DNA of 64,000 nt from Candidatus Harrisonbacteria bacterium (GTDB lineage: Bacteria > Patescibacteriota > Minisyncoccia > UBA6257 > 02-FULL-45-10c), in NCBI GenBank assembly GCA_016214655.1, contig JACROC010000005.1:3078-67077 (forward strand), given 5' to 3'. This document shows, piece after piece, positions 27,324 through 33,217 of this stretch. Position 1 is the first letter of the stretch; the number at the start of each line of letters is the position of its first letter. The notes under the pieces are model-generated. The model was given only the letters and a program-made list of their open reading frames with translations. It had not been told where the DNA came from and searched no databases. Made by a program: the position numbers and the translations under genes.

Positions 27324-27914
27324 ATGCATAAACGAACTTTAATTTTTATCGGCGGCGTTCCAGGTGCTGGCAAAACTGCCTTATCATCATGGATGGAACT
27401 GCAATACGAAAATCGCATTAAGCTGTTAAATCCAGGCGAATTATTCCGGCGTTACTTTTATAAAGAAAGGATAAAAACCATTGAAGAAATCGAAGAATTG
27501 ATAGCGGGTGAATTAGGAAAGGCCTTGTCAGATTCCGCAGCAGTTGCTCATTGGCACTATGCGGTCCGGCGTCCTTCCGGATATATTCCCCAGATTAGTT
27601 TTTCCCGCTTGCGGCGCCTGGCAAAAAGCGGACAGGTTGACCGAGCGCTTTTGCTTTTGATTGATGCCCCGGCAGAAGTGATTCGCGAGCGTCGGTTGCG
27701 GGATCAGGCGATTAAAAAGCGCGAACCTGTTCTGCCGATTATTCATGAGGAGCTTTGGACCGAGGAAGAATTCTGGGTTATGCACCAGGCATTATTTTCG
27801 GACATCTTGGGCGACGATCGAGTAACTGCTTTACGGCTGGCGAACATTGATTTCTGCAAAACTAAAGCCAATCTGGAGGAGATCTTCTCCTCTTTTTTGT
27901 TGTCAAAAAGTTAG
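27324..27914 (+). CDS. P-loop nucleotide/small-molecule kinase-like protein
   Basis: Walker A is IGGVPGAGKT. A LID-like segment (LLLIDAPAEVIRERRLRD) resembles adenylate/nucleoside-kinase or zeta-toxin-like kinases. Confidence 0.6.
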   Translation: MHKRTLIFIGGVPGAGKTALSSWMELQYENRIKLLNPGELFRRYFYKERIKTIEEIEELIAGELGKALSDSAAVAHWHYAVRRPSGYIPQISFSRLRRLAKSGQVDRALLLLIDAPAEVIRERRLRDQAIKKREPVLPIIHEELWTEEEFWVMHQALFSDILGDDRVTALRLANIDFCKTKANLEEIFSSFLLSKS

Positions 27915-27959
27915 ACACAGGGCATGGATAGCACTGCTTTTTTCTTTTAGTGTGGAGGC

Positions 27960-29387
27960 ATGAAGAATTACATTTTAGTCGGCTTAGGACCGCACGCCAA
28001 AAGAATCTACTACCCTTTTCTGGAGAAGCATCAAGCGAAATATGATATTCGCTTAAAATTGCTTATTGAACTGGAGAGTCAATCGTCAAGAGTGATGGAA
28101 TTTTTACGTCAAAGAAGTTTGCAGCCTGGAAAAATATTGTATATCTCGGATAGTGAATCAAACAGGATGGGGGCGGAATTGGATGGTGCCGTTAAAAAAG
28201 AGTTAGATGGCATAGTTCGCCAGGAAAGAATAGACGGAATAATCATTTCCACCGAGCCAAAAGCGCACAAAATATATGCGGAATGGGCGCTCAAAAATAA
28301 CGTTAATATTTTGATGGATAAACCCATCACTTCCCCGCTTTATCCAAGCACTAAGATTGAGTCAGCTCATCAAATATACCAGGATTATCTTGACTTAAGG
28401 GAGCTGCACGAGCAAAGCAGATCTAAATTTTATATAGTTTGCCAGAGGAGAAACCATCAAGGCTATGTCTTAATCAAGAAATATTTAAAAGATTTTGTAT
28501 CCGAATACGAAATTCCTATTTCTTATATTGATATTTACCATGCAGATGGGGCTTGGAGTTTGCCGCATGAGTTTCAGAAAGAAAATCATCCGTATAAGTA
28601 CGGGTATGGCAAACTGATGCATTCCGGCTATCATTTTGTAGATTTATTTGCTTGGCTGGCCCAAGCGAACTTTGGTCTGGAAAATGCGCGGCCAGATCTT
28701 GCGAAAGTTTATACGGCCAGATTTACCCCAAATGATTTTTTTCACCAAATACCAGAAACTGCATACGCAAAGTTTTTTAATCGGCCGGCTACTAGGGATT
28801 TTTACCGGGCTTATAAGCCGCAAGACTATAAGCATTTCGGAGAGCTGGATGCTTACATTCTGACCCAGTTGATGCGGGGTCAAAATGTGGTTACCAGCGG
28901 TTCCATTAATCTTCAGCAAAATTCTTTTTCCAGAAGAGGGTGGTTTGATTTGCCAGAAGATACTTACAAGGGCAATGGTCGTGTCCGGCACGAAAGAGTT
29001 AATATCCAGGTTTCCCAATTTTTGAATATCCAAGCGCATTCTTATCAATCATATGAACCGAGCAAAGACGCAACGGAGATTGGAAGCTTAGGCAGCGAGG
29101 ATCATTTTGATATATTTATTTTTCGGAATAAAAAAATGGTCGGAGGAAAGCCTTTTCTTAAAATTTCGGTCGGAGGAGAAATGGAAGAAAACCACAAAAA
29201 GGATTCCTATTATTTGGGCCATAACGAGCAGGCTCGGGAAATTACCTTGCTAAACTTCATTGAAGGCAAACCTGATGAATCGGAATTCCAATATCATGAC
29301 TTCACCAATCAGCTGCTTTCAAATATATATGCCTCTATTGCTCAAGGCGCGCAAACAGGCAACCAGCAGTTAACATTTAAAATCTGA
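27960..29387 (+). CDS. Gfo/Idh/MocA-like NAD(P)-dependent oxidoreductase with an unusual C-terminal extension
   Basis: N-terminal Rossmann segment ILVGLGPHAK and the family-typical ISTEPKAHKIYAEWALKNNVNILMDKPIT (EKP motif). Total 475 aa. Confidence 0.55.
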   Translation: MKNYILVGLGPHAKRIYYPFLEKHQAKYDIRLKLLIELESQSSRVMEFLRQRSLQPGKILYISDSESNRMGAELDGAVKKELDGIVRQERIDGIIISTEPKAHKIYAEWALKNNVNILMDKPITSPLYPSTKIESAHQIYQDYLDLRELHEQSRSKFYIVCQRRNHQGYVLIKKYLKDFVSEYEIPISYIDIYHADGAWSLPHEFQKENHPYKYGYGKLMHSGYHFVDLFAWLAQANFGLENARPDLAKVYTARFTPNDFFHQIPETAYAKFFNRPATRDFYRAYKPQDYKHFGELDAYILTQLMRGQNVVTSGSINLQQNSFSRRGWFDLPEDTYKGNGRVRHERVNIQVSQFLNIQAHSYQSYEPSKDATEIGSLGSEDHFDIFIFRNKKMVGGKPFLKISVGGEMEENHKKDSYYLGHNEQAREITLLNFIEGKPDESEFQYHDFTNQLLSNIYASIAQGAQTGNQQLTFKI

Positions 29388-29392
29388 AATAT

Positions 29393-32781: not shown

Positions 32782-32791
32782 GTATTATCGA

Positions 32792-32826
32792 CCCCTATCC
32801 GATTGGATAGGGGTTTTCATTTTTAA
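32792..32826 (+). terminator. rho-independent terminator after the MBL gene
   Basis: cccctatcc-gattg-gatagggg followed by ttttcatttt. Confidence 0.6.
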
Positions 32827-32881
32827 TTAATTTGACTTTGCGTTAAGTAAGCTTTATATTCTGATTAGATCTTAATAAATA

Positions 32882-33217
32882 ATGGTCCTAATGAATTATC
32901 AAAGAGAGGCGAAGAGATTGGTCGCTCAAGTTGAACGTTTAGTTAATCAAAAAACGCGACTACTCAAAAACCTCTTGATTTATAAGAGATCCGTCGCTGC
33001 GTCCCGTCGAAGATTGGTCAAAGTTAGCCGTGTATTAAAAGAGGTGGATCCAGATAAAGTTATCTTTTGGGGTTTATGTATACCAGGAGATTTAATGGAG
33101 CATCTGATGTCTTTGACGGATAGAGATAGAGAAAGAAAGCTTCAAGAAAGGCGAAATCAATTAGTAAAAACTATTGCTGGGTTGCTGAAAACAAATAAGC
33201 TAAAACCGCTCTCTTAG
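32882..33217 (+). CDS. small coiled-coil/basic hypothetical protein (111 aa)
   Basis: ORF-track ORF, highly charged and helical. A weak hairpin plus T-run follows it. Confidence 0.45.
   Translation: MVLMNYQREAKRLVAQVERLVNQKTRLLKNLLIYKRSVAASRRRLVKVSRVLKEVDPDKVIFWGLCIPGDLMEHLMSLTDRDRERKLQERRNQLVKTIAGLLKTNKLKPLS

Follow-up and report, generated by a model that had tools for sequence, protein, structure and literature searches.

What do closely packed enzyme genes do in a bacterium of the candidate phyla radiation (CPR), when no known pathway accounts for the combination? The question is raised by a locus in a 64,000-nt stretch of DNA (contig JACROC010000005.1 of assembly GCA_016214655.1, positions 3,078 to 67,077; hereafter the window) from a metagenome-assembled genome of Candidatus Harrisonbacteria. 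The locus encodes a TrmB-family regulator and, divergent from it, a P-loop kinase, a Gfo/Idh/MocA dehydrogenase (Gfo) and a 742-aa protein which joins a methyltransferase (MTase)-like domain to a domain of the SelO fold. The last of these is identical to HZB99_01640 and is named Big here. These genes form a real, conserved and uncharacterised operon of Paceibacteria-type CPR bacteria. Its best explanation, held at a probability of roughly 0.45, is a TrmB-controlled operon in which Big would serve as a nucleotidyl transferase, acting with Gfo and the kinase on a small molecule. The core features are as follows (positions are those of the window):

26173-26922, minus strand: TrmB-family winged-helix regulator, 249 aa (Pfam TrmB, E 5e-11), divergent from the operon
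27324-27914, plus strand: P-loop kinase resembling archaeal AdkA, 196 aa (AAA_17, E 3.9e-7)
27960-29387, plus strand: Gfo/Idh/MocA NAD-dependent dehydrogenase, 475 aa, whose C-terminal domain is enlarged (Pfam GFO_IDH_MocA)
29393-31621, plus strand: Big, whole open reading frame (ORF), 742 aa
29393-30130, plus strand: N-terminal domain of Big, about residues 1-245, a Rossmann fold like that of class-I S-adenosylmethionine (SAM) MTases
30131-31541, plus strand: C-terminal domain of Big, SelO fold (protein-kinase-like), nucleotidyltransferase type

Conservation of the cassette

Loci around Big homologues were drawn from assemblies, GTDB representative genomes and JGI metagenomes, and the window proteins were mapped onto them by tblastn. 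The order TrmB (minus strand), kinase, Gfo, Big recurs in L005, L007, L008, L009/L043, L010, L011, L012/L036, L018 and L034. L037 has TrmB, Gfo and Big, with the kinase missing, and on the partial contigs L035, L041, L042 and L044 the end of Gfo lies immediately 5' of Big. Besides the window, the cassette is thus seen in at least 11 CPR loci in full view and in these four truncated contigs. Gfo is the best conserved of the four genes, at 65-77% identity to its window counterpart; Big reaches 45-60%, TrmB 43-49% and the kinase 38-55%. Wherever the cassette locus is complete, the TrmB orthologue is divergent and in the same place. For at least 20 Big homologues the longest contig is exactly as long as that of some Gfo homologue, which is taken to mean that the two lie on the same contig. 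Several genomes have Big split at the exact domain boundary into genes for 240 and 510 aa.

The flanks of the cassette vary from genome to genome and include an amylase with glycosyltransferases, ribosomal protein L19, a 1331-aa surface protein and a NUDIX gene; because they differ in every genome, the four genes travel as a unit. Elsewhere the cassette is found among ribosomal, tRNA-synthetase and glycosyltransferase genes. One gene order is thus kept in many unrelated genomic contexts, and the clustering is far beyond chance. At the 3' side of the L041 cassette there is a convergent gene for the quinolinate synthase NadA (3039-4130, minus strand; Pfam E 1e-59), and a gene for a DUF3307 membrane protein (2445-2870) lies between the two.

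The original prediction, made from the sequence alone, had proposed an uncharacterised multi-enzyme island of co-directional genes with short gaps, and this is borne out. The kinase, Gfo and Big genes, a 39-aa ORF, a gene for a metallo-beta-lactamase (MBL)-fold protein and a 111-aa gene are all on the plus strand in the ORF map, within the span first given (27324-33217). Gaps are 45 nt between kinase and Gfo, 5 nt between Gfo and Big and 3 nt between Big and the 39-aa ORF, whose frame overlaps that of the MBL gene. All five fold and family assignments proved right, including the SelO-like kinase fold fused to an MTase-like domain; the genes did not fall into unrelated housekeeping families, and their synteny is conserved. 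The boundaries need redrawing: the conserved unit consists of TrmB, kinase, Gfo and Big, and the MBL gene is a lineage-specific addition. TrmB, which had been placed in the flank, belongs to the unit.

Big and its relation to SelO

The C-terminal domain of Big has a protein-kinase-like fold which can be superimposed on SelO, and the match is strong. At the level of sequence the two are far apart, with about 15% identity. Big lies below Pfam detection: the window protein has no match to PF02696 (SelO/YdiU, UPF0061) at E <= 0.1. Among 56 homologues only P0034 has a precomputed PF02696 match, and P0208 scores 22.9 bits against a cut-off of 22.8. The profile of the Big family finds no match among PDB profiles at E <= 1. 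An hhalign alignment of the family to E. coli SelO agrees with the motifs; it is statistically weak (E 0.16) and was used only to name equivalent residues.

Four residues of the domain, R414, R422, N464 and D473, are invariant in 48/48 sequences. In the weak alignment R414 and R422 correspond to R170 and R177 of E. coli SelO, and N464 and D473 to N247 and D256 (R176/R183 and N253/D262 in P. syringae SelO, whose Lys-Glu pair is K113-E136). In SelO the two Arg residues bind the gamma-phosphate of a flipped ATP, and the Asn and Asp bind metals (PMC8097203). Since the two metal ligands and the two Arg residues that contact phosphate are kept, Big is probably active, and its SelO-fold domain is probably a nucleotidyl (AMP) transferase. 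More broadly, the residue pattern suggests a functional metal-dependent enzyme, a transferase or a hydrolase, which binds nucleotides in a remodelled pocket. Big and SelO/YdiU further share a Gly-rich GSGR motif and a conserved Cys near the C-terminus, which in Big stands 5-12 residues from the end in 36/48 sequences.

Big differs from SelO/YdiU in its N-terminal MTase-like domain and in the optional C-terminal domains which bind cyclic nucleotides (cNMP). The N-terminal domain is a seven-stranded Rossmann-like MTase fold and matches no Pfam MTase family. Its motif I is atypical and near-invariant (EVAPGYEPKIG); the acidic residue of beta2, E54 (LIEPD), is conserved in 38/38 sequences, and an (S/N)HPFDD motif follows beta4.

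Canonical SelO enzymes AMPylate or UMPylate proteins (PMC8097203), and SelO/YdiU also hydrolyse NAD, which yields nicotinamide mononucleotide (NMN) plus AMP (PMC13391479; YdiU-NAD crystal structures PDB 9jyn/9jym). A SelO operon with a Gfo dehydrogenase and a kinase was not reported in the 2012 neighbourhood survey of the family (PMC3281104). A further likeness is to the MchC/MceJ branch, which acts in the maturation of siderophore microcins: there too a SelO-family enzyme belongs to a dedicated cluster with sugar-modifying enzymes (PMC3281104). The likeness lies in this description and in the chemistry of MceIJ; the cassette differs in having no microcin precursor, glycosyltransferase, esterase or exporter.

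Genes for an ABC-F-type double ABC ATPase stand beside Big in two otherwise unrelated loci (L003 11563-13032 and L020 4747-6204). Genes of the uup type are also reported to be enriched near canonical SelO genes (PMC3281104).

Gfo dehydrogenase and kinase

Gfo passes the Pfam threshold for PF01408 (35.4 bits against a cut-off of 24; E 1.9e-8), and its AlphaFold2 model has a pLDDT (predicted local distance difference test) of 90.2. A Foldseek search with the model returned sugar and cyclitol dehydrogenases at E 1e-16 to 1e-14, namely GFOR (3e-16, as for others), DgpA, scyllo-inositol dehydrogenase, glycoside 3-dehydrogenases and KanD2. It shares with them a Rossmann domain followed by an alpha/beta substrate domain, an EKP-type Lys and an HxxD motif. 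In 44 homologues the Rossmann GxGxxH is invariant, and D120-K121-P122 and HxxD (H225, D228) are invariant or nearly so. Compared with these enzymes, the window protein is about 120 aa longer and only 11-15% identical; it falls below every NCBIfam equivalog cut-off. Gfo genes outside the cassette (Chryseobacterium, Anaerolineae and a 1.2-Mb CPR contig) have no consistent partner.

A CPR-type copy of Gfo, 63% identical to that of the window, is present in one genome of the Bacteroidota, on a contig of Chryseobacterium sp. JUb7 (JANUFF010000008.1; L029 8061-9484). It is apparently frameshifted near codon 388, which suggests either horizontal transfer and decay or contamination.

The kinase resembles archaeal adenylate kinase (AdkA). 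The window protein alone matches the NCBIfam archaeal adenylate kinase model below equivalog level (E 3e-7; 30.1 bits against a 155-bit cut-off), and a profile of nine orthologues matches AdkA structures over their full length (1ki9, E 1.7e-7). The two also agree in length, at about 190 aa, and in having Walker A and LID-like Arg residues. The kinase is set apart from AdkA by its bacterial host, by its place inside a cassette and by an invariant motif of its own, HWHYAVRRP..IPQ; Walker A (GGVxGxGKT) is likewise invariant. There is also a weak match to Zeta_toxin (E 0.0017), which covers the N-terminal P-loop only.

TrmB regulator and operator-like palindromes

The region around TrmB and the cassette genes contains the following repeats (none is assigned to a strand):

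26968-26986: operator-like palindrome 1, TTGTCAAAAGTTTAAACAA, of the TTGTC-N9-GACAA type, in the TrmB-kinase spacer
27036-27304: imperfect palindrome of about 270 nt, between operator 1 and the kinase gene
27900-27918: operator-like palindrome 2, TTGTCAAAAAGTTAGACAC, at the kinase/Gfo junction
31542-31560: operator-like palindrome 3, TTGTCAAAAACTTAGACAC, within the non-conserved 3' tail of Big

The operator-like repeats follow a 19-bp consensus, TTGTCGAAAAGTTAGACAA, with TTGTC and GACAA as arms and a 9-nt spacer. Spacer comparison placed the palindrome in the TrmB-proximal spacer (TrmB-kinase or TrmB-Gfo) of 11/11 cassettes. A position-weight scan gave a further copy between kinase and Gfo in each kinase-bearing cassette (10/10), and none in the loci of cNMP-fused homologues. 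The window has three matches where 0.04 would be expected. It is suggested by this arrangement that the TrmB-like protein binds the palindrome and co-regulates the genes.

Like the TrmB-family sugar-responsive regulators, the window protein has the N-terminal TrmB winged-helix domain, and the layout is the familiar one, with a divergent regulator gene and an inverted-repeat site ahead of the regulated genes. The protein is only 249 aa long; its first ~145 residues align, and the large C-terminal sugar-binding domain of characterised TrmB proteins is not covered. Compared with the operators of TrmB, the TTGTC-N9-GACAA site is defined here by conservation only.

Palindrome 3 is identical to palindrome 2 at 18/19 positions, and the flanks are alike. 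It sits 65 nt 5' of the 39-aa ORF and 220 nt 5' of the MBL start. Homology among Big proteins stops at residues 714-722, which is the exact start of palindrome 3; the last ~25 codons of Big (31542-31621), which contain it, are conserved in no homologue. This suggests that in this lineage the Big ORF has grown across an operator that was once intergenic. The MBL gene would then have been drawn into the TrmB-type regulon in the same lineage: it is linked to the cassette here by the palindrome ahead of it and of the 39-aa ORF, although it is not a conserved member.

Two other loci have displaced copies. The palindrome lies directly before the split Big of L020, despite the absence of TrmB, kinase or Gfo neighbours, and in L041 it comes after Big, before the DUF3307 gene.

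The TrmB-kinase spacer of the window is 401 nt long and is dominated by the ~270-nt palindrome, whose arms pair 27036-27103 with 27237-27304. The region 26990-27323 has a predicted folding energy of -129 kcal/mol (z -10.1). No Rfam family matches either the spacer or the whole window, and the palindrome is missing from ten other cassettes, whose spacers measure 115-190 nt. It has the look of an insertion specific to this lineage, either related to miniature inverted-repeat transposable elements or a structured 5' leader, and lies outside the conserved unit.

MBL gene, 39-aa ORF and the end of the unit

Downstream of Big the window contains:

31625-31744, plus strand: 39-aa ORF with a strong Shine-Dalgarno sequence; putatively coding, non-conserved
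31780-32781, plus strand: MBL-fold phosphodiesterase, 333 aa from GTG 31780; lineage-specific member
32790-32815, plus strand: hairpin and T-run resembling an intrinsic terminator, with 11 pairs of which 6 are G-C; ends the transcription unit
32882-33217, plus strand: 111-aa gene, behind the terminator and a promoter-like site

The MBL protein matches Lactamase_B_2 (E 4e-15), within the group of RNase Z, PhnP and cyclic-nucleotide phosphodiesterases, and is far below every curated equivalog cut-off. Its frame had been annotated from 31741. The true start is most likely GTG 31780, because this codon has an AAAGGAGGTGG of its own ahead of it and because the shorter version is covered to 100% by homologues of 326-340 aa. 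The gene was considered as a conserved member of the cassette and rejected, as it is absent beside Big elsewhere. The only other MBL gene lies near L009/L043, three genes beyond TrmB, and its product is 29% identical.

The 39-aa ORF and its Shine-Dalgarno sequence are present in the sequence as predicted, with GGAGG 5 nt upstream of the ATG. No tblastn match to it was found in any locus. In 14 related loci no small ORF of this kind is seen behind Big; what usually comes next is a terminator, an unrelated gene or a tRNA-like sequence. The 39-aa ORF could be spurious, or else serve as a leader or small ORF on the MBL transcript.

In a scan of 26-34 kb, the hairpin at 32790-32815 is the first terminator-like site and the one with the longest stem. 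The 111-aa gene is outside the unit: the strong terminator and the promoter-like site precede it, and tblastn found no counterpart in any related locus. A coiled-coil gene is also outside the unit.

Two further neighbours may be mentioned. The small gene described earlier as toxin-like is a 116-aa ORF (33370-33720, minus strand) with a weak DUF4258 match (E 0.003, N-terminal 27 residues only) and no link to the cassette in other loci. On the other side, upstream of TrmB, is a 387-aa gene (24991-26154) which is absent beside other cassettes. It encodes an AAA_28 P-loop domain, of the family to which the ribosylnicotinamide kinase domain of NadR belongs, and a C-terminal part with EIERKF...EIEL motifs which is CYTH-like by eye.

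The wider Big family

Searched exhaustively by profile, the family numbers 722 representative clusters (50% identity) at E <= 1e-3, 139 of them at E <= 1e-30. Proteins with both the MTase-like and the SelO-like domain measure 730-980 aa, and those with the SelO-like domain alone 600-670 aa; the N-domain also occurs by itself (~240-265 aa), with no Pfam family match. About half of the close homologues have two C-terminal cNMP-binding domains. An all-against-all comparison of the neighbours of these cNMP-fused forms found no conserved partner except the ABC-F ATPase in two loci.

Other fusions bring in further enzymes. A verified single ORF in L032 (2930-7576) encodes 1548 aa and combines a Big homologue (MTase-like and SelO-like) with CN_hydrolase and NAD_synthase domains, i.e. 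a Gln-dependent NAD synthetase. APH small-molecule kinase domains and radical-SAM domains (P0193, P0203) are found in others. A distant clade (L021-L027; ~30% identity, ~670 aa, no MTase domain, sometimes in tandem; Riflebacteria and others) is divergent, in 6/7 loci, from a conserved gene set whose products are one small protein and three radical-SAM enzymes, two of them B12-binding and the third RaSEA-like (e.g. L027 3391-9923). This gene set may be a natural-product cluster or one for ribosomally synthesised and post-translationally modified peptides (RiPPs).

The family also occurs in giant ORFs. One of them, P0177 (7620 aa), was traced as a stop-free frame across 18.2 kb (L014 1-18235, residues 772-6848; CAZBIH010000010.1). 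Its modules run in the order Lactamase_B_2, cNMP, Big, two cNMP, 2-hydroxyacid dehydrogenase and hexokinase, followed by others; P-loop kinase, IMPase-like, HAD/S6PP, Pyr_redox_2 and MTS methyltransferase modules are also present. The Lactamase_B_2 module and the window MBL share only a 28-residue stretch. Nineteen copies of a [GA]ARL[AS] motif lie, by eye, between modules, like linkers or cleavage sites of a polyprotein. Four more giant ORFs contain Big and cNMP domains: L040 1-10536 (at least 3512 aa), L045 3-18251 (at least 6083 aa), P0178 (4071 aa) and P0298 (5515 aa). Beyond these domains they show no likeness to P0177, and the GARLA-type motif is missing from them; P0178, the one of the four that was scanned, has no other Pfam match. 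No description of this architecture or of the giant polyprotein was found in the literature.

Upstream of full-length homologues outside the CPR a "178-aa" gene recurs. It was considered as a partner and discarded; the proteins are unrelated and agree in length by coincidence.

Proposed function

The favoured reading can be set out in steps. A TrmB-family regulator would bind the palindromes and co-regulate kinase, Gfo and Big, and here also the MBL gene. The SelO-fold domain of Big would bind a nucleotide in the flipped orientation and transfer a nucleoside monophosphate (NMP), most likely AMP from ATP or possibly from NAD, to an acceptor. The MTase-like domain is predicted to bind SAM or another adenosine ligand and to act on the substrate of the SelO-fold domain. 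Gfo would be an obligate partner and act on that substrate's sugar or ribose moiety. The kinase could re-phosphorylate the released NMP or phosphorylate the substrate, and the MBL phosphodiesterase, recruited in this lineage, would hydrolyse a phosphodiester product or a cyclic nucleotide.

A small molecule of the sugar or nucleotide type is a likelier acceptor than a protein, because every conserved partner and most fusion partners are small-molecule enzymes, the latter including NAD synthetase, APH, radical-SAM, hexokinase, HAD and dehydrogenase modules, and because the SelO family offers precedents in NAD hydrolysis (PMC13391479) and in microcin maturation by MchC (PMC3281104). The 39-aa peptide is not the acceptor. 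The variable neighbours of the cassette are often nucleotide or phosphodiester hydrolases: MBL (window, and near L009), PDEase_I with PPK2 (L007), HIT with HAD (L001) and NUDIX (L009). Such neighbours suit a cycle in which an AMP-phosphodiester is written and erased and the kinase salvages AMP.

Several points weigh against this reading. We infer every mechanistic step, for all four proteins, and it is position and conservation only that point to binding of the palindrome by TrmB. Among characterised SelO enzymes, protein modification and NAD hydrolysis are the only activities. In the weak alignment SelO's Lys-Glu pair is out of register: K107 falls on G344, with a conserved K/R347 three residues on, and E130 falls on R371, which is Arg in 45 sequences (the CPR clade) and Glu only in 3 distant ones. 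Gfo belongs to a family (2029 homologues) far wider than Big and occurs without it. The MBL family is wider still, with at least ~8000 members against 56 word-indexed Big homologues, or about 100 times the size, and each of the eraser-like neighbours is present in only one or two loci. Finally, the cNMP-fused forms of Big stand alone, never beside Gfo, kinase or TrmB, and fit a self-sufficient regulatory enzyme better than a dedicated pathway step.

Alternative explanations

The last point leads to the main rival, in which Big is a regulatory enzyme that NMPylates proteins (an AMPylase or UMPylase). It would be controlled by the fused cNMP domains or by Gfo, as an NAD(H)-sensing partner or target; the kinase would recycle AMP, and MBL or other hydrolases would strip the modification. 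We regard this as possible but doubtful. Protein AMPylation and UMPylation are the activity of the sole characterised SelO-fold enzymes (PMC8097203), the fold match is strong, and the metal- and phosphate-binding residues are invariant. The split between stand-alone cNMP-fused genes, which have no conserved neighbours, and Gfo-linked genes is strict; the genes for Gfo and Big lie close together or overlap, and the conservation of Gfo is unusually high. Small-molecule enzymes as conserved partners, and as most of the fusion partners, speak for the opposite choice. Moreover, the cassette encodes no candidate protein substrate besides Gfo or the kinase, and the MTase-like domain has no role in known protein AMPylation.

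A second possibility, which we consider unlikely, is that the operon handles NAD. The SelO-fold domain would be a regulated NAD pyrophosphatase (NAD to NMN and AMP) or, in reverse, an NMN/nicotinate mononucleotide (NaMN) adenylyltransferase; the kinase, which is adenylate-kinase-like, would salvage AMP, and Gfo would bind or use NAD. SelO and YdiU are Mn-dependent NADases for which YdiU-NAD structures exist (PMC13391479), and the verified ORF which joins a Big homologue to CN_hydrolase and NAD_synthase points the same way, as do NadA beside one cassette and a NUDIX gene near another; the NAD synthetase fusion and the NadA neighbour are, however, single instances. The Cys near the C-terminus of Big (36/48) recalls the Cys/Sec tail needed for the NADase activity of SelO (PMC13391479), but it is off the SelO position and is Ser in five sequences. 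The MTase-like domain is again left without a role.

A conflict or defence module, as the original prediction had also entertained, is very unlikely. It would consist of a cNMP-activated or TrmB-controlled effector which AMPylates its target or depletes NAD, with a Zeta-like kinase. Effectors fused to cNMP-binding domains occur in Pycsar, one cNMP-fused homologue of Big sits among restriction-modification genes, and the window offers the weak Zeta_toxin match and the DUF4258-like small gene nearby. The full-length match of the kinase is to adenylate kinase, not to Zeta toxin, and there is no cyclase, integrase, transposase or other mobile-element gene. GC content is flat across the window (~0.41), with no compositional anomaly, and other genomes have the cassette amid housekeeping genes. 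PADLOC has no match for Gfo, Big, the 39-aa ORF or MBL, and only a 17-residue P-loop match for the kinase.

The remaining suggestion, a RiPP-like cluster in which the 39-aa ORF would be a precursor modified by the kinase, the dehydrogenase, the MTase/SelO-like enzyme and MBL, is close to refuted: in spite of the near-perfect Shine-Dalgarno sequence and the B12-radical-SAM enzymes, a type frequent in RiPP pathways, beside the distant clade, it is rejected for the conserved cassette since the ORF has no counterpart in the 14 related loci, and in addition no transporter, protease or leader-recognition (RRE) gene is found among the genes examined and the ORF sits in the apparent operator and leader region of the MBL gene.

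Significance

The folds of the cassette proteins are known; the family, the domain fusion, the operon and the operator are not described in Pfam, NCBIfam, PADLOC or the literature found. SelO is among the most conserved "pseudokinases", and its chemistry has been revised twice, to AMPylation and then (2026) to NAD hydrolysis. The analysis defines a large unannotated sister family of SelO, neither domain of which is covered by Pfam, and new architectures: the MTase-like fusion, fusions to cNMP-binding, NAD-synthetase, APH and radical-SAM domains, and copies within ORFs of 4,000-7,600 aa.

It is improbable that Big is an unrecognised NAD enzyme, be it an NMN/NaMN adenylyltransferase of the SelO fold or an NAD pyrophosphatase under ligand control, working with the kinase and the NAD-dependent Gfo. 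If it were, genome-reduced CPR bacteria would gain a non-canonical route of NAD salvage or homeostasis, switched by TrmB or, in other lineages, by cyclic nucleotides. The proteins look soluble and their models are of high confidence, so that these predictions are directly testable in vitro. Because CPR bacteria combine a minimal metabolism with very many unknown genes, a conserved and regulated cassette of this kind offers a concrete handle on their physiology.

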